From contig CAWGXL010000010.1 of the NCBI GenBank assembly GCA_963826535.1, forward strand, positions 42,814 through 106,813: a stretch of 64,000 nt of DNA, given 5' to 3'. The notes under the pieces are model-generated. The model did not search any database and was not told where the DNA came from. It saw only the letters and a list, made by a program, of their open reading frames with translations. Positions 467-55,988 of this stretch are shown piece by piece (the first letter of the stretch is position 1; the number at the start of each line of letters is the position of its first letter). Source of the DNA: an uncultured bacterium (GTDB lineage Bacteria > Patescibacteriota > Microgenomatia > Levybacterales > UBA12049). A program made the translations under genes and the position numbers.

Positions 467-535
467 GTTTACGTAAACTATTTATAGTATACAGATATTA
501 AAATGGGATAAAAAGACTGTAAGGGTTAAGTAACA

Positions 536-576
536 ATCTCCCAACCCCCTTTACTAAAGGGGGCGAAGGGGGATTT
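536..576. repeat. Short variant of the nested palindromic element (copy 1 of 3), intergenic
   Basis: atctcccaaccccctttactaaagggggcgaagggggattt shares the CCCCCTTTAyTAAAGGGGG core and the ...GGGGGATTT arm with the copies at 20565 and 24399. Confidence 0.6.
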
Positions 577-5872: not shown

Positions 5873-6151
5873 ATGGAAAGAACATGTAAACGCTGCGGAG
5901 CCAAATTTAAGATGATCAAGCAGGAGCTTGAATTCTATAAGGAAATGGGACTCCCTCATCCTGATAATTGCCCGACATGTAGACAGGAACTCCGCGAAGC
6001 AATGCGTAATGAAAGAAAATTCTATAAATATCCCTGTGCCAAATGCGGCAAAGACATGGTAACAACCCATAACCCCGATAAAAAGTTAATCGTTTATTGC
6101 ATCCCCTGTTATACGGAGTTTCGCAACACCGTAGACCTGACAAAAGAGTAA
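5873..6151 (+). CDS. Double zinc-ribbon protein (4 x CxxC)
   Basis: CKRC...CPTC and CAKC...CIPC pairs in 92 aa; starts 3 nt after the ATPase stop and ends immediately before the first Cys-rich paralog. Confidence 0.6.
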   Translation: MERTCKRCGAKFKMIKQELEFYKEMGLPHPDNCPTCRQELREAMRNERKFYKYPCAKCGKDMVTTHNPDKKLIVYCIPCYTEFRNTVDLTKE

Positions 6152-7042
6152 ATGACCTTTCTCCAAAAATACGAGCTTCTGAAGAAATCCATTCCAGTCC
6201 CTGCTATGGCAAATGACACACAATCTATCGGTTGTGAATACTCAGATGGGATGGTTGCAAGTAAAAACTGTTTCTTCTGTGAGGGAGGCTGGCAGGAGGA
6301 TTGTATTTATGCTCATTTCTCTCCTTTTAATAATAAAGTTGTAGATAGTCTACATACGTCTAATTCGGAAAAATGTTTTATGTGTGTTAATTGCGACAAG
6401 TGTCATAGCTCTACATATTTAATTGATTGTGTTAGCTGTACTGATTGCCATTTCTCTGCCTTATTAAGCTCATGTACCGATTGCTTCGGCTGCGTTGACC
6501 TAACCCGCAAAAAATATTGTATTTTTAATAAACAATTTACTAAGGAAGAATATTTTAAAAAAGTTGAGGAATTAAAAAAAGAAAAACCGGAAAGTATTCT
6601 TAAGCAAATGTTTGAGATAAAAAAGAAAGTGCCACATCCGGCAAGTCAACAATTCAATAATGAAAATTGTCTATATGGCAATCATATGTATAATTCAAAG
6701 AATTGTTTTTGGGCTTTCAATAGTTGGACTAGCGAAGATTCTGGATACATTTTTAATTGCCCTTCAGTCGTAAATTGTTGGGATCAACATAGGGTTTCTC
6801 ATAGTGAGCGCTGCTATGAGATGGTCCAATCGCCCTATAATTATGAGTGCGCATTTCTATTTGATTGCGAAAGGTCTAAAAACTGCTTTTATAGTACAAG
6901 GCTTATAAACTGTACCGATTGTTTCGGCTGTGTGGCTTTAAAAAATAAAAAATATTGCATTTTAAATAATCAACTATCCAAAGAGCAATACGAAAAAGCA
7001 GTAATAGTGATTAAAAAAGAATTAGGCTGGCAAATATCGTGA
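6152..7042 (+). CDS. Cys-rich repeat protein, paralog 1 of 4 (unassigned family)
   Basis: About 12% Cys; N-terminus MTFLQKYELLKKSIP; repeated C-x2-C-x2-S-x2-L units; each half ends CFGCV(D/G)L..KKYCI(F/L)N.Q(F/L/Y)(T/S)KE(E/Q)Y; C-terminal IKKELGWQIS. Confidence 0.7.
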   Translation: MTFLQKYELLKKSIPVPAMANDTQSIGCEYSDGMVASKNCFFCEGGWQEDCIYAHFSPFNNKVVDSLHTSNSEKCFMCVNCDKCHSSTYLIDCVSCTDCHFSALLSSCTDCFGCVDLTRKKYCIFNKQFTKEEYFKKVEELKKEKPESILKQMFEIKKKVPHPASQQFNNENCLYGNHMYNSKNCFWAFNSWTSEDSGYIFNCPSVVNCWDQHRVSHSERCYEMVQSPYNYECAFLFDCERSKNCFYSTRLINCTDCFGCVALKNKKYCILNNQLSKEQYEKAVIVIKKELGWQIS

Positions 7043-7073
7043 TAACCCATGTTACCTGCTATAATATTGAACA

Positions 7074-7982
7074 ATGACTTTTCTTGAGAAATTCGAACTC
7101 CTGAAAAAATCAATCCCTATCCCGTCTGTAATTGCCAGCTCCTCTGTTGACTGCGATTATACTGATTTTGTCGATCGATGCAAGAATTGCTACTATTCCT
7201 TCGATGCGTATTATCTTGAAAATAATATATATACATATTATGGAGCATATAACAAAATGTTATTAGATTGTCATGGAATGGGTGAATCGGAAAAATGTTA
7301 TGAAAGCGTAGATTGCACAAAGTGCCACAGCTGTACCTATTTAATAAACTGCAATGGAAGTAGTGACTGTCATTTTTCAGCCTACTTAAACTCATGCAGT
7401 GATTGCTTCGGGTGTGTTGATTTAACTCATAAAAAATATTGCATATTTAACCGTCAATATACAAAGGAGGAATACTTCAAAAAAATTGAAGAGCTAAAAA
7501 CAGAAAATCCAAAGAATTTACTAGAGCAAATGTCAGATCTCGAACGAAAGTTGCCGCATCCTGCAACTTACCAATCCAATAGCGAAAATTGTCCATACGG
7601 TAATAATATTTATAATTCAAAGAATTGTTTTTGGTCTTTCAATACATATTATTTTGAAAACTCGGGCTATTCTTATTATGTATCATACGCAAAGAATTGT
7701 TGGGATGTCTCTGAATTTGGAGGAAACCCGGGAGTAAAAACAATTTCGGAGAGATGTTATGAGAATTTAAATACAGAGACTTGTTACGATTGCGCGTTTC
7801 TTGTGTCAAGCAAAAACTGCACAAACTGCCACTACAGTGACCAGCTAATAAACTGTTCCGACTGTTTCGGTTGCGTAGGGTTAAAAAGTAAAAAATACTG
7901 TATATTAAACAATCAACTTACAAAAGAACAATATTCACAAGCCCTAAAAGAAATCAAAAAAGAACTTGGGTGGAAGACTTAG
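7074..7982 (+). CDS. Cys-rich repeat protein, paralog 2 of 4
   Basis: Aligns along its full length with paralog 1 (MTFLEKFELLKKSIP..., CFGCVDLTHKKYCIFNRQYTKEEYFKK, ...IKKELGWKT). Confidence 0.7.
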   Translation: MTFLEKFELLKKSIPIPSVIASSSVDCDYTDFVDRCKNCYYSFDAYYLENNIYTYYGAYNKMLLDCHGMGESEKCYESVDCTKCHSCTYLINCNGSSDCHFSAYLNSCSDCFGCVDLTHKKYCIFNRQYTKEEYFKKIEELKTENPKNLLEQMSDLERKLPHPATYQSNSENCPYGNNIYNSKNCFWSFNTYYFENSGYSYYVSYAKNCWDVSEFGGNPGVKTISERCYENLNTETCYDCAFLVSSKNCTNCHYSDQLINCSDCFGCVGLKSKKYCILNNQLTKEQYSQALKEIKKELGWKT

Positions 7983-8011
7983 CAATTATTAATTTTTCTC
8001 TAAATTTAAAT

Positions 8012-8917
8012 ATGAACTTTCTTGAAAAATATGCACTCCTCAAAAAATCCATTCCAGTTCAGGCTGTTTCGGTGCGTTCATCTGTAGATTGTGAATATGC
8101 AGATATCGCCGTAAGTTGTAAGAATTGCTACTACTGCTTCGATTGTTACAAGTTAGAAGGTGGAATGTATACAAATTTCGGCTGGGGGAATAAGTTGGTG
8201 GACTGTCGTTCAGTGATAGAATCAGAAAAATGCTATCAATCTGCGGATTGCAACAAATGCCATAGCTCTACTTACCTTTTTGATTGTAATAGCAGCACAG
8301 ATTGTCATTTCTCCGCTTTTTTGAACTCTTGTGCCAATTGTTTTGGTTGTGTAGGTTTAACACATAAAAAATTTTGTATTTTGAACACTCAATATACCAA
8401 AGAAAAATATCAGGAAAAGTTGGAAGAATTAAAGAAGGAAAACCCTGATAAGCTAATTAAGCAAATGTTAGATTTGAAACAAAAGATCCCGCATCCCGCT
8501 AGTCAGCAGTTCAATTCCGAAAATTGCCCTTATGGTGACTATATGTATGATTCAAAAAATTGCTACTGGGGTTTTTTGATAAATTATTCTGAAAACTCCG
8601 GCTATATTTATGAGAGTGGTACTATGAAGAACTGCTGGGATGTCTTTTTCTCAGGTGGTAACTACAGCCAAAAAACTTTCTCAGAGCGCTGTTATGAGAA
8701 TGTTAATACTGATACTTGCTACGACTCAGTATTTCTAAAAGATAGTGAAAATTGCACGAACTGCTATTATAGTGAAAATATCTTAAACTGTTCCGACTGC
8801 TTCGGTTGTGTAGGACTAAAAAATAAAAAATACTGTGTGCTAAATAACCAACTAACCAAAGACCAATTTACCCAAGCTCAAAAAGAAATCAAGAAAGAGC
8901 TTGGATGGAGGATTTAA
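8012..8917 (+). CDS. Cys-rich repeat protein, paralog 3 of 4
   Basis: The track ORF starts at 7970, but the conserved N-terminus MNFLEKYALLKKSIP begins at ATG 8012; ends ...IKKELGWRI; overlaps/abuts neighbours. Confidence 0.65.
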   Translation: MNFLEKYALLKKSIPVQAVSVRSSVDCEYADIAVSCKNCYYCFDCYKLEGGMYTNFGWGNKLVDCRSVIESEKCYQSADCNKCHSSTYLFDCNSSTDCHFSAFLNSCANCFGCVGLTHKKFCILNTQYTKEKYQEKLEELKKENPDKLIKQMLDLKQKIPHPASQQFNSENCPYGDYMYDSKNCYWGFLINYSENSGYIYESGTMKNCWDVFFSGGNYSQKTFSERCYENVNTDTCYDSVFLKDSENCTNCYYSENILNCSDCFGCVGLKNKKYCVLNNQLTKDQFTQAQKEIKKELGWRI

Positions 8918-8921
8918 TACT

Positions 8922-9827
8922 ATGACATTTCTTGAAAAATACGAACTATTGAAAAAATCTATTCCTGTTGCCGCAGTATCAAATGATTTAAATACAGTTA
9001 ACTGTGAATACATAGACTATGTTTATCAAAGTAAAAATTGTTATTACTGCTTCGATTCAGTAGAGATTGAAGATTGTATTTATACAATAATGGCTAGGGG
9101 AAATAAACTTATAGACTGCACCTCTGTATTCGAATCAGAAAAGAGTTATATTTGTATAGATTGCACGAAGTGTTATAACTCTACATATTTATTAAAAAGT
9201 AATAATTCTACTGATTGCCACTTCTCTGCTTTTTTAAATTCATGCACCGAATGTTTCTGCTGCGTCGGACTAACTCATAAGAAATATTGCATTTTTAACC
9301 GTCAATACTCCAGGGATGAATATATAAAAAAAGTAGAAGAATTAAAAAACGAGAACCCGGAAAAGATTCTCGCCCAAATGATCGAATTAAAACAAAAAGT
9401 TCCTCATCCTGCTAGCCAACAACTTAATAGCGTTGGGTGTCCGTATGGTGATGGTATAGATAACTCAAGAAGCAGTTATTGCTCTTTTAACGTTACCAAT
9501 ATTGAAAACTCCGGCTATATTTATTTAAGTAGTAATATCAAGAATAGTTGGGATATTTATTTTACCGGTGGTACAGGTACAAAAACTTTTACAGAACGAT
9601 GTTATGAACTTGTGGATTGTGGGTTTAGTTATAATAGCGCATTTCTCTACAATTGCATAGATTGTACAAATTGTTATTACGGTTTAAGTCTTACACACTG
9701 TTCTGATTGCTTCGGTTGCGTTGGGTTATCAAAAAAGAAATACTGCATATTAAATAACCAACTAACCAAAGACCAATACAATATAGCCATAAATGAGATT
9801 AAAAAAGAGCTCGGCTGGAAATCTTAA
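8922..9827 (+). CDS. Cys-rich repeat protein, paralog 4 of 4
   Basis: The track ORF starts at TTG 8901, but the conserved N-terminus MTFLEKYELLKKSIP begins at ATG 8922, 4 nt after paralog 3's stop; ends ...IKKELGWKS. This is the most divergent copy (CFCCVGL variant). Confidence 0.65.
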   Translation: MTFLEKYELLKKSIPVAAVSNDLNTVNCEYIDYVYQSKNCYYCFDSVEIEDCIYTIMARGNKLIDCTSVFESEKSYICIDCTKCYNSTYLLKSNNSTDCHFSAFLNSCTECFCCVGLTHKKYCIFNRQYSRDEYIKKVEELKNENPEKILAQMIELKQKVPHPASQQLNSVGCPYGDGIDNSRSSYCSFNVTNIENSGYIYLSSNIKNSWDIYFTGGTGTKTFTERCYELVDCGFSYNSAFLYNCIDCTNCYYGLSLTHCSDCFGCVGLSKKKYCILNNQLTKDQYNIAINEIKKELGWKS

Positions 9828-9865
9828 CTTGCATTTTCGGGTAAAAAGGTGTAAATTCAGGCCGT

Positions 9866-11757: not shown

Positions 11758-11785
11758 GCTAACCCACAGCAATCTGATAGTGTAT

Positions 11786-11888
11786 TGTCATTCCGAGCGA
11801 CCAAAGGGAGTCGAGGAATCTCATACCACCTTAGCTACTAATTGGGGTGAGATCCCTCCACTACGCTATCGCTTCGGTCGGGATGACA
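11786..11888 (+). mobile_element. MITE-like repeat, type 1, copy A (TIR TGTCATTCCGAGCG / CGGTCGGGATGACA)
   Basis: Near-identical to the reverse complement of 13837..13938, including the internal GAGTCGAGGAATCTCATACCAC...GGTGAGATCCCTCCACTACGC; fills the spacer between convergent genes. Confidence 0.75.
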
Positions 11889-13836: not shown

Positions 13837-13938
13837 TGTCATCCCGACCGAAGCGAAGCGTAGTGGAGGGATCTCACACCAATGAGTTGCTTAAGTGGTA
13901 TGAGATTCCTCGACTTCCGTTGGTCGCTCGGAATGACA
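13837..13938 (-). mobile_element. MITE-like repeat, type 1, copy B (inverted relative to copy A)
   Basis: tgtcatcccgaccgaagcg...ggtatgagattcctcgact...gctcggaatgaca; the reverse complement matches copy A. Confidence 0.75.
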
Positions 13939-13955
13939 AAATTGCGTAACATTAG

Positions 13956-15821
13956 TTATTCTATCAGCTTTTTCACTTTCGCAACAATTTGTTTCGCGCT
14001 GATACCGGCGGCGTCTAAAAGTTCCTCAGATTTGCCCGATGAAGAAATTTTTGTCACAGCTATTTTTTCAACATGAGCGCCGGTGTTTGAAAGGCTAGAT
14101 AAAACGAAATCGCCCAAGCCTCCGTGCTCATAATGATCTTCAACGGTAATTACAGTTTTTTGTTTTGTTTCCCTCAGACTCTGCTTTAATGTTTTTGAAT
14201 CTATTGGTTTAATACAGTAGCAATCGATAACTCTGATATTTACCCCATCATTTTTAAGTGTGTCATAAGCCTTTAACGCTTCAAAAACGGTAATACCCGC
14301 AGCTACCACGGACAAAACGTCTTTTTGAGATTTTTTGAGAATTTTTGAACCCCCTATTGAAAAATTTTCATTTGTTTCATATAAAACAGGAGTCTTAGGA
14401 CGAAGAGTGCGTAGATAAGTAATTCCATCATAATTTGCGATCAGAGGTATAACTTTGGCCGTTGATACGGCATCTGACGGATGAAATATGATTGAGTCCG
14501 GAATCGCTCCAAAGATCGCAAAATCTTCAAGTGCCATTTGCGATGGCCCGTCTTCACCGATTGAGACACCAGCGTGAGAACCAATGAATTTTAAATTGGC
14601 GCGACCAATTGAGGCCATTCTGACTTGATCAACTGCGCGTGTTAGAAACGCGGCAAATGTAGAAACAAAAGGAATTTTCCCAAGGCGTTGTAAACCAACC
14701 GCGAGCCCAACCATATTCTGCTCGGCAATAAAACACTCAATAAAGCGGTCTGGTAGAACTTTCAAGAATTCCTGACTATAAGTGGAATTTTTTACTTCCG
14801 CATCAAGCGCGTATATATTCTTGTTTAATTCGCCTAATTTAGCTAACGCCTGTCCATAAACCTCCCGTGTCGCATGTTGCTGATCTTTTGAAAAATTAAT
14901 TTTTAAATTTTCGGGTGACTTTATTTTTTTTGTAAACTCCAATTTTTTGGGCTTTTTTAAACTGAACTTCAAATTATCATTAACTTTACCCAGCTCCATT
15001 AGCGCTTTGTCTAGCTCTTCTTTTTTTAGAGGCTTACCGTGCCAGCTATCTTTATTTTCTATAAAAGAAATGCCGCGGCCTTTGAAAGTCCTGGCAATTA
15101 TCACGAATGGCTTGCCTGTACCTGCCCGTCCGGCAGGCGGGTTATTTTTTACAGCCTGCGAGAACGCGCGGTCGACTTCGAATAAATTATTTCCGTCAAT
15201 AGCAATTGCTTCAAATCCAAAAGCTTTGAACCGGCTGATATATTCTTCCAAGTGGTGACCGAACATGGTCTCCTGGCTTTGACCGAGACGGTTAATATCT
15301 GCGATAGCAATGAGATTATCCAATTTATTCAAACTCGCAAAATTAGCGGATTCCCAAACCTGTCCTTCAGCTAATTCTCCATCACCTAAGAGTACGTATG
15401 TTTTATATGGTAAATTTTCCCGCTTAGCAAGTAAGCTTAAACCTGCTCCGATAGATAGGCCTTGTCCCAGTGAGCCGGTAGCAGCTTCCGCATATGGATA
15501 TTTCGCCGGAGTTGGATGCCCTTCAAGTCGGCTGCCAAATTTTCGGAGAGTTTTTAGTTCTTCAAGCGGATACGCCCCAGCCATAGCAAAAAGTGTATAT
15601 AAAAGTGGAGATGCATGGCCTTTTGAAAGTATAAACCTGTCGTTATAAAGATTAAGTGGATTTTTCAAGTCATAAGTAAAATATTTATCAAAAAGAACTG
15701 TACACAAATCTGCAGCAGATAAACAAGAAGTTGGATGACCTGAACCAGCCTCAGTAGTTGAAACCAAACACCATTTACGGACTAATTTAGCTTTTTCGAG
15801 TAATTCTTTTTGATTAAACAT
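13956..15821 (-). CDS. tkt: Transketolase
   Basis: N-terminal TPP-binding region (GSGHPTSCLSAADL, GHASP), 621 aa, with typical pyrimidine-binding and C-terminal domains. Confidence 0.9.
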   Translation of the reverse strand: MFNQKELLEKAKLVRKWCLVSTTEAGSGHPTSCLSAADLCTVLFDKYFTYDLKNPLNLYNDRFILSKGHASPLLYTLFAMAGAYPLEELKTLRKFGSRLEGHPTPAKYPYAEAATGSLGQGLSIGAGLSLLAKRENLPYKTYVLLGDGELAEGQVWESANFASLNKLDNLIAIADINRLGQSQETMFGHHLEEYISRFKAFGFEAIAIDGNNLFEVDRAFSQAVKNNPPAGRAGTGKPFVIIARTFKGRGISFIENKDSWHGKPLKKEELDKALMELGKVNDNLKFSLKKPKKLEFTKKIKSPENLKINFSKDQQHATREVYGQALAKLGELNKNIYALDAEVKNSTYSQEFLKVLPDRFIECFIAEQNMVGLAVGLQRLGKIPFVSTFAAFLTRAVDQVRMASIGRANLKFIGSHAGVSIGEDGPSQMALEDFAIFGAIPDSIIFHPSDAVSTAKVIPLIANYDGITYLRTLRPKTPVLYETNENFSIGGSKILKKSQKDVLSVVAAGITVFEALKAYDTLKNDGVNIRVIDCYCIKPIDSKTLKQSLRETKQKTVITVEDHYEHGGLGDFVLSSLSNTGAHVEKIAVTKISSSGKSEELLDAAGISAKQIVAKVKKLIE

Positions 15822-16978: not shown

Positions 16979-17090
16979 TGTCATTCCCCTGGACAGGGGA
17001 ATCCAGAAGATATAAATAATTCTTCCTTATTAAGCAATAAGAGGAATAGACTTTTTTTACCTACTGGATTCCCGCGTTCGCGGGAATGAC
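16979..17090 (+). mobile_element. MITE-like repeat, type 3 (TGTCATTCCCCTGGACAGGGGAATCC ... GGATTCCCGCGTTCGCGGGAATGAC)
   Basis: Terminal hairpins share the TGTCATTCC/GGAATGAC ends with types 1 and 2; the track ORF 16981..17223(-) across it is spurious. Confidence 0.6.
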
Positions 17091-19956: not shown

Positions 19957-21486
19957 TTAGAGAATACTGGATAGGGCGGATTTACTGCGGAGTTTCTTGT
20001 GGTAGGTTATGGCGAAGCGATGTGCTTCGTCCCGGATGCGCATAATTAAATGGAGAGAAGGGGAGCTTTTGGGAAGTGAAATTTCTTGATAATGCTCTCC
20101 CTCTTTTGTCATTGCGAGCGAACGAAGTGAGCGCGGCAATCCTGCCCGATTATTTGTCAATTTTTCTTTTAATAGAGATTGCTTCGTCTCCTCCATCCGG
20201 CGGATCCTCGCAATGACAGGAACTATTATTGTCTCTTCTCTCTTGGCCAATCCAATCAGGGGTATATTCATATTATTTTCTTGTAAAACTTTAAGCGCTG
20301 CTGATACCTGCCCCTTGCCCCCGTCAACGATTATTAAATCAGGCAAGTCCCATTCAGTATGTTTTAGTCTCCGCGTTATCACTTCTTGCATCATTGCAAA
20401 ATCATTTGGTTTGCCCGATATTCGAATTTTAAATTTACGATATTGCGAACCCTCTTTTTCACCGTTTATAAATACCACCATTGACCCCGTCGCATTTGTG
20501 CCTTGTGTATTGGAGATATCATAACACTCAATTCTGTTTAGTTTTTTCATATCCCCCCAACTCCAATCCCCCAAGCCCCCTTTATTAAAGGGGGTGTCCG
20601 AAGGACGGGGGATTTTTGCAGCATCCGGAAGCAAAGTTGATTCTTGAATATTCTGGGCAGTGGGAATTTTGTGAGTTTGATTCAATGCTTCCATCAACCC
20701 ATTTAATTCCTGTTGTCTTAGGTCCGCGCGGAGATTAGGATTTGTATCATATTCAAAAGGCGTGTGGATTGGTGTTGTTATTAAACCAAGTGCATCTATT
20801 TTTTTCTGGATTTTAAGCGCTTCTTCAAAGTTCTCGTACTTACTTAATTTATCACGCTCTTTTTCCAGCTCACCCATTATTTTTCGGGACTGACCTTCTA
20901 ATATACGAATAATATTGCGGATAGTCTTTTTATAATCTTTAGCCGCCTCCACCGAATCAAAAACCTGTGGACATGGACATAAACCCAGGTGATTATATAG
21001 GCAAATTCGCTTAGAGTGATTTAGAGCTGAAACATAAGGAAAAACACGTCGGATTGTTTTGAGCACCAACCGTACAGAAGAAGTACTTGGATATGGGCCA
21101 AAATAGATTGCCTTGCTATCTTGCTCTAGTCTAGCCAAAGTAATACTTGGATATTTATCTTTTATAGTAATCTTAATTCGGATATATGATTTGTTATCTC
21201 TTAAAGTTATATTATATTTTGGCTGGTATTTTTTAATATAATAGGCTTCGAGAAGTAAAGCTTCCAGCTCTGATTCAACGACGGTTATTTTTATCTTTTT
21301 TATTTGCGAAACAAGCACCCGGGTTTTGTCACCTAAATCTTTGTTAATATAATACGAAGAAACTCGCGCTTTCAGATCGTTGGCTTTTCCAACATAAAGT
21401 ACAATATTACCTGCGTCTAAAAATCTGTAGACGCCCGCTTTTGAGGGCAATGATGAGTATGATAATACAGAGTATACCAATTCCAA
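19957..21486 (-). CDS. uvrC: Excinuclease ABC subunit C, carrying two in-frame repeat insertions and lacking the C-terminal HhH region
   Basis: GIY-YIG domain (GVYRFLDAGNIVLYVGKANDLKARVSSY), UvrC core, EAHRFAI motif; the ORF ends about 20 aa after EAHRFAI; the start is probably downstream of the track TTG at 21486. Confidence 0.8.
   Translation of the reverse strand: MELVYSVLSYSSLPSKAGVYRFLDAGNIVLYVGKANDLKARVSSYYINKDLGDKTRVLVSQIKKIKITVVESELEALLLEAYYIKKYQPKYNITLRDNKSYIRIKITIKDKYPSITLARLEQDSKAIYFGPYPSTSSVRLVLKTIRRVFPYVSALNHSKRICLYNHLGLCPCPQVFDSVEAAKDYKKTIRNIIRILEGQSRKIMGELEKERDKLSKYENFEEALKIQKKIDALGLITTPIHTPFEYDTNPNLRADLRQQELNGLMEALNQTHKIPTAQNIQESTLLPDAAKIPRPSDTPFNKGGLGDWSWGDMKKLNRIECYDISNTQGTNATGSMVVFINGEKEGSQYRKFKIRISGKPNDFAMMQEVITRRLKHTEWDLPDLIIVDGGKGQVSAALKVLQENNMNIPLIGLAKREETIIVPVIARIRRMEETKQSLLKEKLTNNRAGLPRSLRSLAMTKEGEHYQEISLPKSSPSLHLIMRIRDEAHRFAITYHKKLRSKSALSSIL
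20107..20218 (+). mobile_element. MITE-like repeat, type 2 (TIR TGTCATTGCGAGCG.../...CTCGCAATGACA), inserted in-frame in uvrC
   Basis: The reverse complement translates without stops to PVIARIRRMEETKQSLLKEKLTNNRAGLPRSLRSLAMT, which is residues ~420-459 of the UvrC ORF, between the conserved GLAKREE and RDEAHRFA segments. Confidence 0.7.
20565..20615. repeat. Nested palindromic element, copy 2, in-frame in uvrC
   Basis: aatcccccaagCCCCCTTTATTAAAGGGGGtgtccgaaggacGGGGGATTT; read on the minus strand it encodes ...DTPFNKGGLGDWSWGD within UvrC. Confidence 0.7.
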
Positions 21487-23257
21487 TTCCTCCTCCGACC
21501 GTCCACCATTTTTTAATAAGTAATGGGGAAATATCGATTGTTTGCGTTAATGTCTGATTGCTTACACGTATTGTAAAACTCTTTATTTTATTTGTCAAAA
21601 AAGGTTCTTTCTTAAATGAAACGTTTAGACTTGCTGACCCAAAAGGAGGAATTAGGGGTACATTGAGTATTTGTTCACTAGGAGAAAGTTTGGATGATGA
21701 AATTGTTAATACCTGTGGAGATAATAGGCTTTGGCTGGCATTCTTTATTGTGATTTTACCTTTAATCGGTAAAGCAGCCATCGCATGTTTTGGCAGAGAC
21801 GAAATAATATCAAAATTAGCATCAATCGGGGGCGTGTTTTGACTGAAGTCAACCGAGACATCTTTGGTATATTTATCTGAAATAAATTTGTATCCTCCGG
21901 CAGGAATTGGGTAATTGCTATCCATTCCTTTTATAACAAAAGCAAAGTGATCAAAATCAAGTGTTGAGAAATAATCAATTCCACCTGTTGTACTTCCCCA
22001 CGTCGGATCAACCATAATCCATGTTTTTTTCTGATCATCATAATATTCCGGCCAGGCATGCAGAATATCCTTGACTAAAGAAAGAGGCCGTTGTTTGGTA
22101 TTTTGAGTGTAGGCGAATCCGTCAACTTCACGGGCTGGGATCCCGGCTGCACGGGCTAAAGCTATGAATAGATCGGTATACTCCAGGCAAACTGCGGAAT
22201 CGGGATTTTTCAACGCATTTAGAGCTCCTAAGCGGGGCTTGTCCTCCGTTACTCTTGTAAAGTCATATTTTAGTGCTTTAATTACAAATTTGTAAATTGC
22301 GTCCGGAGTTTTTAGCTCCTGTGCTAGTTGTTTTAATTCATTTGAATCTGCCTGCCAATATGGTTTTTCTTCCAGATATTTAATTCTGGACTCCTGCGAT
22401 AATTCTTCCGGCATGGGATTAAGCAGTATTTCTGCTTTACCATCAACAGTTACATCCATTTTTTGCGATGGCCCAAGATTAAAACTGGCAAGCCAATTTT
22501 TATCTTTATCAAGTACAACATTCTCGGGCAAAGGGCGAATGTCTTGAATAAAGACATTTTGATAGTTTGTCGTTGGGGGTATAGCAATTTCTGTTTTTAC
22601 AGGATAGAGATTATCATTTTTTATATGATAGGTAAGATGAAAAGAATAAATTTGCTTGTCGCCAAAGGAAATCGAAATACCGGATTTTCCAAGTTGTTTT
22701 TTATCAAAGACAAGACTTTCAAAAGAATTGACCTGCCTGCCGGCAGGCAGGTAGGGTTTAGTGTATGCCGGCTTACCAAAAGACGGCGGGACTTTAATTT
22801 CAACAGCAAATGTATCAAATTCGTCAGGATTTGATATTCCCGGTACATTAATTTCCCAGATTTTCCCGTATTGTTTGGCTACATCAGGGGTATCAAAAGT
22901 AATAGTAAAGTCTAATTTCTTACCTTGCCCTGGGGCTTTTTTGTTGAATGTTAAATTTATAATATATCCATCATCATTTTTTTCTATAACCGGATTTATT
23001 TTTCCGTCAGGATCAACGGCCGAAATATTGGTAATATTATCAAAACCCACCTGAATTTTATAAGAAGACGCGTAATACTCTGAAGTCTTATTAGTCAAGC
23101 TCACTTTTAAAGTGGCATGAGTTATTCCACTGGTCGCAGTTGAGTAAGTAACATTATAATCAGTGATAAAGTTGGAGGCAGCGGAAACAGGATACCGAGC
23201 AGATATTAAGAAAAAAGATACTATTATTGCAATTAAAAATGTAATTTTACTAAACAT
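21407..23257 (-). CDS. Transglutaminase-like cysteine protease domain protein, secreted, C-terminal TM anchor
   Basis: N-terminal signal peptide, transglutaminase core (CLEYTDLFIALARAAGIPAREVDGF), C-terminal hydrophobic anchor plus RRR tail; the 3' end overlaps the annotated uvrC start by ~80 nt. Confidence 0.65.
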   Translation of the reverse strand: MFSKITFLIAIIVSFFLISARYPVSAASNFITDYNVTYSTATSGITHATLKVSLTNKTSEYYASSYKIQVGFDNITNISAVDPDGKINPVIEKNDDGYIINLTFNKKAPGQGKKLDFTITFDTPDVAKQYGKIWEINVPGISNPDEFDTFAVEIKVPPSFGKPAYTKPYLPAGRQVNSFESLVFDKKQLGKSGISISFGDKQIYSFHLTYHIKNDNLYPVKTEIAIPPTTNYQNVFIQDIRPLPENVVLDKDKNWLASFNLGPSQKMDVTVDGKAEILLNPMPEELSQESRIKYLEEKPYWQADSNELKQLAQELKTPDAIYKFVIKALKYDFTRVTEDKPRLGALNALKNPDSAVCLEYTDLFIALARAAGIPAREVDGFAYTQNTKQRPLSLVKDILHAWPEYYDDQKKTWIMVDPTWGSTTGGIDYFSTLDFDHFAFVIKGMDSNYPIPAGGYKFISDKYTKDVSVDFSQNTPPIDANFDIISSLPKHAMAALPIKGKITIKNASQSLLSPQVLTISSSKLSPSEQILNVPLIPPFGSASLNVSFKKEPFLTNKIKSFTIRVSNQTLTQTIDISPLLIKKWWTVGGGIGIGILCIIILIIALKSGRLQIFRRR

Positions 23258-23261
23258 GAAT

Positions 23262-23400
23262 TAAAATCAAAAATCCAAAATTACAAATTCCAAATAAATT
23301 CAAATATTTAAATTCAAATATCAAAACATGTTTTGGATTTAATTATTTGAATTTTGATATTATTTGTAATTTGGTGCTTTGAATTTGTAATTTATAGATC
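23262..23400. promoter_or_regulatory. ~130 bp AT-rich imperfect palindrome centred on a perfect CAAAACATGTTTTG, between uvrA (3' end) and the transglutaminase-like gene (5' end)
   Basis: aaatccaaaattacaaattccaaata...tcaaaacatgttttggatttaat...ttgtaatttggtgctttgaatttgtaattt; the arms share AAATCCAAAA/TTTTGGATTT and ATTACAAATTC motifs. Confidence 0.4.
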
Positions 23401-23405
23401 CTAAT

Positions 23406-26339
23406 CTATTTTAATACATTCTTGAGGAATTTGCCTGTCCAAGAGTTGGGGTTAGCAGCAATTTCTTCGGGTGTGCCGGTTGCTACAACTTGTCCTCCTT
23501 TTTCTCCTCCTTCAGGACCTAAGTCAATAATGTAATCGGCATTTTTTATTACATCTAAATTATGTTCAATAACAATGACCGAATTACCAAGACTTACTAA
23601 TCTTTGTAATACATATAATAATTTTTCCAGATCAGCAAAGTGCAAGCCTGTAGTTGGCTCATCCAATATATAAAGGGCATCCCCGCCTTTTTTCGAAAGT
23701 TCAGCAGCAAGTTTGACTCTCTGGGCTTCTCCCCCTGAAAGTGTTGGAGCGGCCTGACCCAACTTGATGTAGGATAGGCCCACATCATTAAGCGTTGCCA
23801 GCCTATGCGTTAGTCCGGGAATATGCGCGAAGAAATTTAAGGCTTGTGTTACGCTCATATCCAGTACATCGGCAATATTTTTATTATTAAATAATATCTC
23901 TAACGCTTCATTGTTATATCGTTTCCCCCGGCAAACTTCGCATGTTACATAAACGTCAGCAAGAAACTGCATTTCAATTTTTATTTGACCCTCTCCTTGG
24001 CATCCCTCACAACGGCCGCCTTTTACATTAAAGGAAAATCTACCCGGACCATAGCCACGCAGTTTTGCCTCTTTTGTAGCAGCAAAGAGACTACGGATAT
24101 AGGAAAAGGCACCGGTATATGTAACACAATTACTCCTTGGTGTCCGACCAATAGGCGATTGGTCGATAGCAAAGACATGCCTCACATTCTCATGTCCCTG
24201 AAGTCCAATAAATTTACCCGCCTTTTGCGGGTGGAACGAGTTTTTTAATTGCATTAAGGCATGGAAAAGAATATCGTTTACCAGAGTTGATTTTCCGCTG
24301 CCTGAGACGCCCGTTACTACGACTAATTTATTTAAAGGGAAATCAACAGTAATCTTTTTAAGATTATGCTCTGAAGCTCCAATTAGTTTTAGGAATTTAA
24401 ATCCCCCGTCCTGCGGGACACCCCCTTTATTAAAGGGGGTAAGGGGGATTTCTTTTGCTTCTGATTTATTTATTTGTATTTTCTTTCTTCCCGACAAATA
24501 AGCACCGGTAATAGAATTTTTATTTTTCTTAATTTCCGCAATAGTTCCCTGCGCAACGATTTTTCCTCCATCTTCACCCGCTCCGGGTCCGAAGTCAAAA
24601 ATATAATCTGATTCTTCCATGGTTTCCTGGTCATGTTCAACGACCAATATTGTGTTTCCCAGATCCCGAAGCTTTTTAAGCGTCAGAATTAATTTAGAAT
24701 TGTCCCGTTGATGCAATCCAATAGACGGCTCATCCAGAACATACAAAACTCCGGTTAATCCGCTACCTATTTGTGATGCAAGGCGAATTCTTTGTGCTTC
24801 ACCTCCGGCCAAAGAAGCGGCTCCGCGGGCTAAAGTCAAGTATTCAAGCCCGACATCTATTAGAAAGCTTAAACGCTGTCGTATCTCACGCAAAATCATT
24901 TTGCCTATATCCTGTTCTCTTTTTGAAAGCACTGCGTTTTCTAGGCTGTCGATAAATTTGAGCGCCTGATCAATAGGAAAATTTGCAACATCTACTATAG
25001 ATTTATCATATATAGTAACCGCCAGTGCCTCTTTTTTAAGTCGTGCCCCATTGCAGCGCGGACAAATATCAAAACGCATAAATTTATCGATTTGGGTTCT
25101 GATAAATTGCGAGTCGGATTCATTATAGCGATTCTTGAGCTCATGATTAATGCCGCGAAACGGCTCATAAATTTCAGTTGTGCGCCCCCAGCGGTTTTCT
25201 CCTTCAACCCGGTATTCTTTTTTTCCTGTTCCGTAAATCAACAAATCTTTTTTTTCTTTGGGTACATCACTTAATTTTGTACTAAGCGGGACATCGTTCT
25301 CCTTACAGAAAGTTTTAAAAGTACGCGAAAACCAAGTGTCGCTCTCTGTCAAATTAAAAAATGGCAAGACCCCACCTTCGTTAATTGTCATTTTGTTATT
25401 GAATACCAAATCCCTGTCAACATTTAGTACCCGGCCCAAGCCGGCGCAATCCGGACATGCTCCATGAGGTGTGTTAAACGAGAAAATTCTAGGTTCAATT
25501 TCCGGAAGGGAAATGTTGCAAACAGGACAGGCAAACTTTTCGGAGAATAGTTGGTCTTCCATTTCCTTAGGCTTTTCCGGTAAATTGAACGAAGAATCTT
25601 GTATTATAGAGACAATCATTTCACCATCGCCATACTGTAATGCCTGCTCAACATCGGTGACAATACGGATCCGGTCTGTATCTTTTGTAAGCACTAAGGA
25701 ATCAATAATTACTTCGATCGTGTGCTTGTTTGTTTTAATAAGCACAAGCTTTTCATCAAGAGTAAAGACCTCTCCATCTATTCTTACCTTGCGGTATCCG
25801 CGCTTTTTCAAACTATTAAATAATTCCGTATACTCACCTTTCCTGTCTTTGACCACTGCTGCCATAAGCATAATACGCAGGTCTGCCCGTCCGGGCATTT
25901 TATGTTTTTTTAACATGTCAAATATAGTATTGGCGATTTGTTCTTTAGACTGACGGGCTATCTCACGCCCGCAATTTGGACAATGCGGATGGCCAATGCG
26001 CGCGAAAAGCAAACGAAGATAGTCATAAATTTCCGTCACCGTACCGACAGTTGAACGGGGATTATGACTTGTTGATTTCTGATCAATGGATATAGCAGGA
26101 GACAAGCCTTCAATAAGATCAATATCCGGCTTTTTCATCGTCCCCAAAAATTGGCGCGCATAAGATGAAAGACTCTCCACATAACGGCGCTGCCCCTCCG
26201 CGTATATTGTGTCAAAAGCAAGTGAAGATTTCCCGCTCCCGGAAAGCCCGGTCAAAATAACCAGCTTATTTTTAGGAATCTCCATGTCAATATTTTTGAG
26301 ATTATGTTCCCGAGCGCCTTTGATAACGAGTTTATCCAT
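23406..26339 (-). CDS. uvrA: Excinuclease ABC subunit A, with an in-frame palindromic-element insertion
   Basis: Two ABC ATPase modules ([23 protein letters not shown]; [13 protein letters not shown]) and zinc-finger CxxC pairs; 977 aa. Confidence 0.9.
24399..24452. repeat. Nested palindromic element, copy 3, in-frame in uvrA
   Basis: AAATCCCCCgtcctgcgggacaCCCCCTTTATTAAAGGGGGtaaGGGGGATTTc; encodes [16 protein letters not shown] in UvrA, in the linker before the second ABC module. Confidence 0.7.
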
Positions 26340-37249: not shown

Positions 37250-37321
37250 CAGGGACGCACGGATTCGAACCGTGAAAAGCAGTTTTGGAGACTGCTGTGA
37301 TAACCGTTTCACCACGTCCCT
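37250..37321 (-). tRNA. tRNA-Trp (CCA)
   Basis: Cloverleaf on the reverse complement: acceptor AGGGACG/CGTCCCT, D-stem GTGA/TCAC, anticodon stem GCAGT/ACTGC with loop CTCCAAA, T-stem CACGG/CCGTG; no encoded 3'-CCA. Confidence 0.8.
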
Positions 37322-37393
37322 AAGTTAGCAAATAGTAAATAGCATATAGAATATGGTTTTATTTACCATTCGCCATAAGCTATTCGCCATTTA

Positions 37394-37573
37394 CTATTTA
37401 AGCTTGTCCGTCTCTTTATGGTCTGTTTTTTTACGGCAGTGCCTGCAATATTTTTTTAATAATAACTTTTCCGGTGTTTCCAGTTTATTTTTTTGAGTTA
37501 TATAATTCCTATTTTTACAAACAGAACAGACAAGACCTATTTTTATTCTATGTTCACCTTTTTTTGGCATACT
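37394..37573 (-). CDS. rpmG: 50S ribosomal protein L33
   Basis: MPKKGEHRIKIGLVCSVCKNRNYITQKNKLETPEKLLLKKYCRHCRKKTDHKETDKLK: L33 CxxC...CxxC zinc ribbon; the track ORF is over-extended upstream into the tRNA; RBS AGGAGG before the ATG. Confidence 0.85.
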   Translation of the reverse strand, partial: SMPKKGEHRIKIGLVCSVCKNRNYITQKNKLETPEKLLLKKYCRHCRKKTDHKETDKLK

Positions 37574-37609
37574 CCTCCTTTCAATATATATTATCTTTTT
37601 ACATATTTG

Positions 37610-37681
37610 AGCCGAAGGCGGGAATCGGACCCGCGACCTAGTTCTTACCAAGAACTCGCTCTACCACTGAGCCACTTCGGC
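37610..37681 (-). tRNA. tRNA-Thr (GGT)
   Basis: Acceptor GCCGAAG/CTTCGGC, D-arm GCTC-AGTGGTA-GAGC, anticodon loop TTGGTAA, T-arm GCGGG-TCCGATT-CCCGC. Confidence 0.8.
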
Positions 37682-37702
37682 TTTTGCCGCAAAGCGGCTT
37701 TG

Positions 37703-37786
37703 TGCTGAGGGAGGGAATTGCACCCCCGGAGTCCGAACGGACGCGTGGTCTACAGCCACGTGCAATTGCTACTCTGCCACCTCAGC
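37703..37786 (-). tRNA. tRNA-Tyr (GTA) with long variable arm
   Basis: Acceptor GCTGAGG/CCTCAGC, anticodon stem CGTGG/CCACG with loop CTGTAGA, 16-nt variable arm, T-arm GGGGG-TGCAATT-CCCTC (unusual T-loop). Confidence 0.7.
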
Positions 37787-37861
37787 GCATTTAGCTAGTT
37801 GCTATTAGCTGTCAGCTCTCTGACAACAAAAAATCTGAAAGCAGAAAGTTAACAGCAGATA

Positions 37862-37933
37862 GCAAATATTGAGCCGACAGAGGGATTTGAACCCCCGACC
37901 CATGCTTTACAAAAGCATTGCTCTACCACTGAG
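37862..37933 (-). tRNA. tRNA-Thr (TGT)
   Basis: Acceptor GCCGACA/TGTCGGC, anticodon stem ATGCT/AGCAT with loop TTTGTAA, T-arm GGGGG-TTCAAAT-CCCTC. Confidence 0.8.
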
Positions 37934-38025
37934 CTATGTCGGCGATTTTGCAATGCAAAACCTAGAACCTGACGATTCAGAAAATACAAGCATAATTTTA
38001 GCAGACATAGGGGGGCTTCAGCAAC

Positions 38026-45449: not shown

Positions 45450-45559
45450 TGTCATTCCGAGCGGACCCCGCTCAGCGGGGGGAGTCGAGGAATCTCATGT
45501 CACTGATTTACAAGAGAAATAAAGTGGTATGGGATCCCTCCACTTCGGTCGGGATGACA
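45450..45559 (+). mobile_element. MITE-like repeat, type 1, copy C
   Basis: tgtcattccgagcggaccccgctcagcggggggagtcgaggaatctcat...gggatccctccacttcggtcgggatgaca. Confidence 0.7.
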
Positions 45560-49866: not shown

Positions 49867-50328
49867 CTAATTGGTTTGTTTCTCGAGTTTTTTTAAACGC
49901 TTCTCGTGATTGTCTATTCGCGTTTCTATTTCTTTTTTCTCATGTTTCTCAAACAATCTATCCTCGCGTAGCTGAGCTAACTCTCCAACAACTTGATCCA
50001 TTTTAGTAAGTATTTCATCACGGTACCCTCGTGCCTTATCATCAATATCCATTTTTGTTTTTTCCAGCATCATCTCCACTTTTATAGTAGTTGGATAATT
50101 GCTTAGCTCCTTTTTAAGGTCATCCTTTGTTGGATAATTGCTCAACTCTTTCTTAAGGTCATCTTTAGTTGGGTAATTACTTAGTGTCTTCTTAAGATCG
50201 TCTTTAGTAGCATATTTGGCTAATTCTTTCTTAAGTTCTTCACGAAGAATGCTTTTTGTAACAACAGGATCGTTAGTTGTAATTTGTTTCATAACAAAAA
50301 GTATAATAAGTTGAGAGAGAAAAAACAA
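49867..50328 (-). CDS. Coiled-coil protein with tandem 13-aa repeats (YPTKDDLKKELSN x3-4)
   Basis: Encoded by four 39-bp tandem DNA repeats at ~50089-50244. Confidence 0.5.
   Translation of the reverse strand: MFFLSQLIILFVMKQITTNDPVVTKSILREELKKELAKYATKDDLKKTLSNYPTKDDLKKELSNYPTKDDLKKELSNYPTTIKVEMMLEKTKMDIDDKARGYRDEILTKMDQVVGELAQLREDRLFEKHEKKEIETRIDNHEKRLKKLEKQTN
50089..50244. repeat. 4 x 39-bp tandem repeat within CDS
   Basis: gttggataattgcttagctcctttttaaggtcatccttt / gttggataattgctcaactctttcttaaggtcatcttta / gttgggtaattacttagtgtcttcttaagatcgtcttta / gtagcatatttggctaattctttcttaagttcttcacga. Confidence 0.7.
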
Positions 50329-55854: not shown

Positions 55855-55988
55855 TGTCATTCCGAGCGGAGCGATAGCGGAGTCGAGGCGACTCCACGAA
55901 GTGGATAGTGCCCTTGTGGTGAATCTCATACCACTGATATTTAAACATAAGATCCCTCCACTCGTCTGCGGACTCGGTCGGGATGACA
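55855..55988 (+). mobile_element. MITE-like repeat, type 1, copy D (longer variant)
   Basis: tgtcattccgagcggagcgatagcggagtcgaggcgactccacgaagtgg...gaatctcataccactg...gatccctccactcgtctgcggactcggtcgggatgaca. Confidence 0.7.

Follow-up and report, generated by a model that had tools for sequence, protein, structure and literature searches.

The 64-kb window analysed here (64,000 nt of contig CAWGXL010000010.1, from an uncultured bacterium of the Patescibacteriota) contains a short nested hairpin element which lies in-frame in two nucleotide excision repair (NER) genes, uvrC and uvrA, and recurs once between genes. In our reading, to which we assign a probability of roughly 0.78, this element is a protein-coding selfish palindrome similar to the Rickettsia palindromic elements (RPEs), and its copies in uvrA and uvrC are tolerated passengers in protein linkers with no repair-specific function. 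We class it as a very short new variant, spread across phyla, of the protein-coding palindromes known from Rickettsia. The selective near-neutrality of the copies and the manner in which they move are inferred.

Direct reading of the sequence identified three copies of the nested-hairpin motif in the window, two genic and one intergenic. A full copy has the layout AATCCCCC–spacer–CCCCCTTTA-N-TAAAGGGGG–spacer–GGGGGATT. The copies and their host genes are as follows:

19957..21486, minus strand: uvrC host gene, with GIY-YIG and UvrC RNase H domains (Pfam) and without the C-terminal helix-hairpin-helix (HhH) domain.
20565..20615: full element in uvrC, 51 nt, AATCCCCC-AAG-CCCCCTTTATTAAAGGGGG-TGTCCGAAGGAC-GGGGGATTT; outer arms 20565-20572 / 20607-20615, core hairpin 20576-20594, side hairpin GTCCGAAGGAC 20596-20606; product on the coding strand (minus) KIPRPSDTPFNKGGLGDW, residues 291-308 of the 509-aa open reading frame (ORF).
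23406..26339, minus strand: uvrA host gene (Pfam UvrA) of 977 aa, complete when compared with solved UvrA structures, with the element in the linker between the two ABC halves.
24399..24451: full element in uvrA, 53 nt, AAATCCCCC-GTCCTGCGGGACA-CCCCCTTTATTAAAGGGGG-TAA-GGGGGATTT; arms 24399-24407 / 24443-24451, side hairpin GTCCTGCGGGAC 24408-24419, core 24421-24439; product of 18 residues (630-647), in the orientation opposite to that of the uvrC copy.
535..576: short intergenic copy, AATCTCCC-AA-CCCCCTTTACTAAAGGGGG-CGAA-GGGGGATTT, with degenerate left arm AATCTCCC, a C-centred core, and a right arm followed by a T-run.

The opposite orientation of the two genic copies is evident from the side hairpin GTCC-loop-GGAC, which lies 3' of the core in uvrC and 5' of it in uvrA; despite this, the central base on the coding strand is identical in the two. 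The short copy has one arm mismatch and no side hairpin, and is flanked by a terminator-like hairpin (425-459) and a promoter-like site (589-618), upstream of an ORF starting at 630. Allowing up to 3 mismatches, the core 19-mer was found at 3 sites in the window against 0.02 expected, and the full nested pattern at 2 sites against 0.00 expected. As single-stranded DNA the two long copies were predicted to fold into a three-way junction, in which the outer stem surrounds the core hairpin and the small GTCC/GGAC hairpin (-17.8 and -20.6 kcal/mol; z = -4.3 and -5.5), and their sense-strand RNA folds have energies of -29.4 and -32.4 kcal/mol. A first-pass annotation of this DNA had described the two in-frame copies with the peptides they encode and a shorter intergenic copy, all of which agree with the sequence and the intact ORFs. 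Its coordinates stand for uvrC, while the end it gave for the uvrA copy (24452) lies one base too far. The core, which it took for a perfect palindrome, is a hairpin of the form 9+1+9 whose central base is unpaired.

Both ORFs are intact and full length and align with solved UvrA and UvrC domains, which rules out pseudogenes, including the frameshifted ones that the first-pass annotation had allowed for. The alignment of UvrA with solved structures covers its whole length, and its sole large excess falls within the stretch linking the ABC halves, where a 39-residue segment of the window protein stands opposite Bst GKKFIPIPAERR...RPDG..RWLEVVGA. UvrC aligns with solved UvrC fragments on either side of two gaps, and its database protein begins at ATG 21450. 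The UvrC proteins of this clade are short, 412-528 aa in the window protein (19957-21486) and homologs P0121-P0240, and end right after the RNase H domain with no C-terminal HhH domain.

Judged by sequence comparison, both genic copies are insertions relative to orthologs. Among 120 UvrA homologs the segment was present only in the identical protein, and the closest other proteins (P0002/P0004, 84% identity) have the linker KSEVKENKEPDKVLKLFGA with no insert. A related genome has a syntenic locus (L121: uvrA, transglutaminase, uvrC, SBP), and on alignment of the uvrA DNA with this locus the element was observed to fill a gap, replacing ~18 nt of linker for a net gain of 36 nt; no arm or core-like sequence was found in 15 kb of L121. 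Where the window UvrC has ~38 extra residues, most of 120 UvrC homologs have the uninterrupted sequence LNxxGFxLxKLxRIECYD. The first-pass annotation had named conservation of the protein sequence in orthologs as a sign that there is no insertion; this is not the case, since the 84%-identical UvrA and most UvrC proteins lack the segment. At the same UvrC site, independent related inserts occur in P0162 (12 residues) and P0123 (PLEKGG), and P0163 holds a palindrome of another family there (CHSEQSEESH). In a metagenomic UvrC (L132) a copy is inserted at yet another position, a third UvrC site flanked by YRKFKI and PNDFAMM, and its side hairpin, GTCCGAAGGAC, is identical. An older enclosing copy (AAAATTCCCAC ... 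GGGGGGATAT) was considered as the source of the ~21 extra residues upstream of the uvrC copy but found no support, as the 151-nt fold has no outer pairing.

AlphaFold2 models built from homolog alignments place the 18 element-encoded residues in predicted low-confidence coil between domains. In UvrC, residues 269-295 (497-aa form) form a coil with pLDDT (predicted local distance difference test) <50 between helix 242-258 and strand 306-313. In UvrA, residues 626-645, with pLDDT <50, lie inside coil 617-648, between helix 610-616 and strand 649-655. The models thus agree with the earlier suggestion that the inserts lie in loops, these being predicted disordered linkers in both proteins. The UvrA linker is hypervariable clade-wide, and other genomes carry peptides of other palindrome types there (P0083 NDEAISTKIAASLLAPRNDEK, P0109 DLPAGRQ, P0005 SPLSGGES...DKEGGGRV).

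Beyond the window, the family was scanned in one genome per species, using the core alone as query with the arms excluded. This yielded at least 129 copies in at least 120 species-representative loci. Hosts among the listed matches include Nitrospirota, Thermodesulfobacteriota and other 'delta' lineages (Desulfobacterota), Ignavibacteria, Brocadiia and Scalindua (anammox Planctomycetota), Dehalococcoidia (Chloroflexota), Margulisiibacteriota, Peribacteria (Candidate Phyla Radiation, CPR), Aminicenantes, Firestonebacteria and Acinetobacter lwoffii. Most listed copies have AATCCCCC(C) and (G)GGGGGATT on either side, 2-6 nt away, though the query omitted the arms, and a minority have longer spacers forming extra hairpins. 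Conservation ends one A/T beyond the arms, with a boundary logo of W-AATCCCCC ... GGGGGATT-W. The copies elsewhere are mostly 42-49 nt, and the family as a whole spans ~42-54 nt. At least 8 phyla share near-identical arms and core, as do viral contigs, of which 10 from IMG/VR contain the element with its arms. Partial relatives are present on plasmids of cultured bacteria, namely Acinetobacter (between pca operon genes) and cyanobacteria (e.g. inside a Planktothrix N6-methylase gene). At two loci, L038 (KdsB) and L020, a complete element lies in the loop of another, which points to insertion into existing copies as a possible origin of the nested architecture.

Fifty-three of the 129 listed copies (~41%) lie deep within ORFs, 40 or more codons away from both ends of the long open frame, and 19 of 20 such ORFs tested are conserved proteins with strong Pfam matches. 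The carriers include MetRS, AlaRS, PurL, chorismate synthase (AroC), EPSP synthase (AroA), KdsB (twice, in the same loop), Kdo transferase (WaaA), a XerC-type recombinase, a P-type ATPase (CopA), MnmA, CbiG/methylase fusions, radical SAM and GH3 proteins and a molybdopterin oxidoreductase. On this distribution of carriers we reject a repair-specific role, and it leaves without support the recombination or regulation site that the first-pass annotation had offered as one explanation. Its other explanation, tolerated selfish palindromes in surface loops, is the one that the evidence favours: the copies are inserts relative to orthologs, they fall in predicted disordered linkers, and they belong to a dispersed family that is also found between genes and in unrelated genes. 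In Ignavibacteria, three secreted proteins (L026, L028, L042) have the element inside the C-terminal sorting domain (LYQNYPNPFNP...KVYDxLGNEV), which is another recurrently hit tolerant loop.

On each strand two frames of the element are stop-free and rich in Pro and Gly (PPF-x-KGG or PPL-x-KG), one producing PF(N/I/T/S)KGG and the second PPL(L/I/V)KG; the third carries TAA. Among the 53 coding copies, 31 use PF-x-KGG and 22 use PL-x-KG. The earlier statement that either orientation gives P-F-(N/I)-K-G-G therefore holds for one frame, whereas the second gives P-P-L-x-K-G and the third has the stop. Tolerance would follow from the fact that CCC (Pro) and GGG (Gly) are mutual reverse complements, such that Pro...Lys-Gly-Gly results in either orientation. 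Pro and Gly placed round an A/T-rich Lys/Asn/Phe/Leu centre would make a loop-forming peptide, and this would explain why the insertions are tolerated.

We propose that the motif represents a copy-family of a tiny (~42-54 nt), non-autonomous, horizontally spread hairpin repeat. Its anatomy is an outer stem AATCCCCC/GGGGGATT round a core hairpin CCCCCTTTA-N-TAAAGGGGG, with extra small hairpins between them in some copies. New copies would arise at A/T-flanked sites, whether in intergenic DNA, in genes or in the loops of existing copies. A genic copy would survive only if the frame stays open, for which two of three frames per strand are stop-free, and only where a flexible linker takes up the 14-18 extra residues. 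Both would be offered by uvrA, with its inter-ABC linker, and by uvrC, with the linker before its RNase H domain. It is because these linkers are long, tolerant and hypervariable across the whole clade that uvrA and uvrC would have been hit.

The uvrA-uvrC cluster carries palindromes of other families too. In uvrC, a second in-frame palindrome of ~110 nt at 20108-20217 (GTCATTGCGAG ... CTCGCAATGAC) has the product VIARIRRMEETKQS...LPRSLRSLAMT and interrupts the RNase H domain, with LAKREETIIVP on one side and YQEISLPKSS on the other; its loop is a hot spot, many UvrC homologs having inserts of the VIARSEATKQS / LAMT type there. Between uvrA and uvrC, the transglutaminase-like gene contains, likewise in-frame, a perfect palindrome of 22 nt, ACCTGCCTGCCGGCAGGCAGGT, at 22731-22752; this encodes YLPAGRQV and lengthens the protein by 7 residues compared with the ortholog in the syntenic locus L121. 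'LPAGRQ' peptides also occur in linkers of UvrA and UvrC homologs (P0109, P0190). Since these other palindromes in uvrC and the transglutaminase gene lie in the same 5-kb cluster, and since the carriers elsewhere are unrelated, the sharing of one element by two NER genes, to which the first-pass annotation had attached meaning, is a coincidence. On this reading, the oddities of uvrA and uvrC in this window are not a repair-related signal.

With regard to mobilisation, our guess is that a hairpin-recognising nuclease supplied in trans may move the element, and the sole candidate we saw is a small DUF559 (Vsr-like PD-(D/E)xK) gene cassette inside hairpin clusters. Small DUF559 genes (PF04480) directly adjoin copies in L011 and L022, and DUF559 genes were observed beside hairpins in 6 distinct genomic contexts. 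The four further contexts, each in clusters of family hairpins, are:

SIR2–DUF559–TANGO2
MFP–DUF559–ABC
DsbA–DUF559–nitroreductase
livK-like–DUF559–livH-like

The hairpin ends within ~35 nt of the DUF559 start in L011, L155, L163 and L173, and hairpins lie up to ~100-190 nt from it in L145, L169 and L174; L022, L169 and L174 have hairpins on either side of the gene. In L155, L163 and L173 the G-rich arm GGGGGATTT takes the Shine-Dalgarno position, its end no more than ~10 nt from the DUF559 start codon, and in L145 and L169 a related CCTCC/GGAGG hairpin occupies this position with the family hairpin ~50-130 nt upstream. Across these eight loci (L011, L022, L145, L155, L163, L169, L173, L174), all hairpins defined by regular expression lie within 250 nt of the gene, and 0 in the remaining 27 kb. 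On CPR-like contigs (L005, L125/L131), DUF559 genes are flanked by other G/C-block palindromes. DUF559 genes are solitary inserts between unrelated genes, even inside operons. The Vsr/DUF559 clade includes a known group I intron homing endonuclease (PMC3424549). By analogy, the DUF559-hairpin arrangement may be a partnership like that of repetitive extragenic palindromic (REP) sequences with REP-associated tyrosine transposases (RAYTs). A broader proposal, which we hold only tentatively and at odds well short of even, is that these are undescribed cross-phylum ultra-small mobile hairpins whose G5/C5 design, translatable both ways as Pro/Gly loops, seeds surface loops in essential enzymes of at least 8 bacterial phyla, and for which free-standing DUF559 nuclease cassettes would be the means of propagation or a co-evolving partner, in a REP/RAYT-like manner with a different enzyme fold.

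Several observations weigh against the interpretation of the element as a tolerated selfish palindrome. No clean pair of empty and filled sites was obtained, the uvrA element having replaced host bases instead of being simply added. Flanking mono- and dinucleotides showed no direct-repeat pattern, that is, no target-site duplication and no conserved target beyond the flanking A/T. All-against-all clustering of 1649 neighbouring ORFs revealed no transposase family recurring near copies, only generic families and the DUF559 lead. The 64-kb window contains no DUF559 gene, and the DUF559 sample is small and biased, as two cases were found via the element and the rest are homologs of at least 70% identity whose flanks were possibly inherited. 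Coding and non-coding copies are not clearly told apart by element length modulo 3, examined for signs of selection on the coding copies (16/11/3 vs 8/11/9), probably due to insertions replacing some host bases. The copy count for the source genome is three, from the 64-kb window only.

The hairpins could alternatively be functional structures, such as terminators or attenuators, mRNA stabilisers, ribosome-pausing elements at domain boundaries, or recombination or regulation sites, recruited to regulate uvrA and uvrC. Their high stability (DNA z of -4.3 to -5.5; RNA folds of -29 to -32 kcal/mol) would suit such a role, as would the T-runs after the intergenic copy and on the antisense strands of both genic copies, the REP-like placement of the Acinetobacter copy between pca operon genes, and the overlap of the G-rich arm with the Shine-Dalgarno position upstream of DUF559 genes. 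However, the sense strands of uvrC and uvrA have no U-tract after the hairpin and continue GGGGGAUUGGAG and GGGGGAUUUAAAUUCC, the intergenic copy was not called by the terminator scan, and the whole window gave no Rfam match at the gathering threshold except four tRNAs. Close orthologs work without the element, and elsewhere it is carried, in both orientations, by unrelated genes at positions that bear no relation to one another, so that we regard recruitment for regulation as improbable. It is less credible still that the inserted peptide, TPFNKGG with its flanks, is a selected protein module giving UvrA and UvrC a function, for example as an interaction loop; indeed, this is by far the least probable explanation and is already largely refuted. 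The same peptide does occur in two proteins of one pathway, with the same frame and central codon in both copies, but one copy is intergenic, 22 of the 53 coding copies use the alternative frame PPL-x-KG, the carriers are functionally unrelated, and the peptide is predicted to be disordered (pLDDT <50) and is missing from the nearest orthologs.

It may also be argued that the elements are not themselves mobile, being either landing pads for a DUF559-type homing nuclease gene or by-products of template-switch or hairpin-primed replication errors that converge on G5/C5 blocks. This would fit the location of DUF559 genes always inside hairpin clusters, the lack of target-site duplication, the many half-elements with one arm (38 left-only and 37 right-only of 153), and side hairpins that vary in length with their stems kept. 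Independent local generation would, however, have difficulty in producing near-identical arms and core in at least 8 phyla and viral contigs, L038 and L020 have whole elements nested in the loops of other elements, and most copies, including all three in the window, have no DUF559 gene nearby. We therefore consider this explanation, too, to have only a slim chance of being correct, and retain the tolerated selfish palindrome as the preferred reading.

The window contains further repeats. A third palindromic family (GTCATTCCGAGCG ... CGGTCGGGATGAC, ~100-110 nt) has at least five intergenic copies, two of which are 92% complementary and lie in inverted orientation on either side of the prfB region:

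11785-11867, intergenic: third-family copy
13857-13939, intergenic: third-family copy
16980-17090, intergenic: third-family copy
45451-45558, intergenic: third-family copy
55856-55987, intergenic: third-family copy

At 6150-9830, four to five diverged tandem repeats of ~920 bp, 60-80% identical and each with an ATG and a similar N-terminus, look like paralogous genes arrayed in tandem. At 50088-50241 a 39-nt unit is repeated three to four times in tandem (75-78% identical), probably as an in-frame 13-residue repeat in a gene. In the protein of the transketolase-like ORF at 13956-15821, 'NNPPAGRAGTGKP' may be one more short insert of palindromic origin. Four tRNA genes are clustered on the minus strand at 37250-37943.

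If our interpretation is true, elements of this kind would be a general source of loop insertions in conserved proteins and would account for odd low-complexity peptides and spurious small ORFs in metagenome annotation, and DUF559 would provide a concrete, testable candidate for a family that is widespread and of unknown function. In open-access full text we found the family undescribed, with nothing on palindromic gene insertions in CPR/Patescibacteria, on the core, the peptides, small dispersed repeats or coding palindromes in this setting, or on a DUF559-palindrome link; an earlier account elsewhere is possible.

Among known systems, REP, BIME and REPIN elements with the RAYTs associated with them (REPtrons) resemble the present family in being short, GC-rich, multi-copy hairpins, often in operon spacers, and in having a small gene flanked by repeats, RAYT there and DUF559 here. 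REPs are extragenic by definition (PMC12306157), whereas two of the three window copies and 53 of the 129 copies elsewhere are inside ORFs. REPs also carry GTAG/CGTC tags (PMC3733652), which are absent here, the ends being AATCCCCC/GGGGGATT, and the candidate partner is a PD-(D/E)xK nuclease rather than a Y1 HUH transposase. Bacterial MITEs (miniature transposable elements with inverted repeats; Correia, ERIC, Nezha and others, compared on the basis of PMC10969869) are likewise non-autonomous, with terminal inverted repeats (here AATCCCCC / GGGGGATT) and occasional in-frame intragenic copies. Unlike MITEs, our element is at or under their lower size limit, has no target-site duplication that we could find, and has no parent insertion sequence with matching ends in ~0.9 Mb of flanking DNA.

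The small dispersed repeats of Nostocales, reportedly described by Elhai et al. in 2008, and mitochondrial GC clusters or double-hairpin elements are tiny, self-inserting, nested hairpins of restricted lineage. They are GC-rich palindromes in AT-rich genomes and sometimes lie in coding sequence, as here; their sequences and hosts are different. The coding palindromes of Nematomorpha mitochondria are also inverted repeats within protein genes with both arms translated, but they are perfect, gene-specific and up to 284 bp long (PMC6649704), unlike the short dispersed repeat family described here.

The closest likeness is to the RPEs, which are ~100-150 bp long, restricted to Rickettsia, and in-frame in housekeeping genes in nearly half of their copies (Ogata et al. 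2000, 2002, as summarised in PMC10969869). Both are dispersed palindromes that lie in-frame in unrelated housekeeping genes and keep the ORF (53 of 129 here, 'nearly half' for RPEs), both add a peptide segment that fits the host fold, and neither has a known associated transposase or target duplication. Compared by description, the present element differs in its length (51 and 53 nt, two to three times shorter), in its G5/C5 blocks, and in its occurrence in many phyla and viral contigs; its host in this window, going by the best protein matches, is a CPR/Microgenomates-like bacterium. A 2024 review considered RPE-like events elsewhere merely conceivable (PMC10969869). In-frame protein-coding palindromes have so far been treated as a peculiarity of Rickettsia; here, an element of ~45 nt is found in many phyla, including the tiny-genome CPR, and the core enzymes that carry it include tRNA synthetases, enzymes of the shikimate and lipopolysaccharide routes, UvrA and UvrC.

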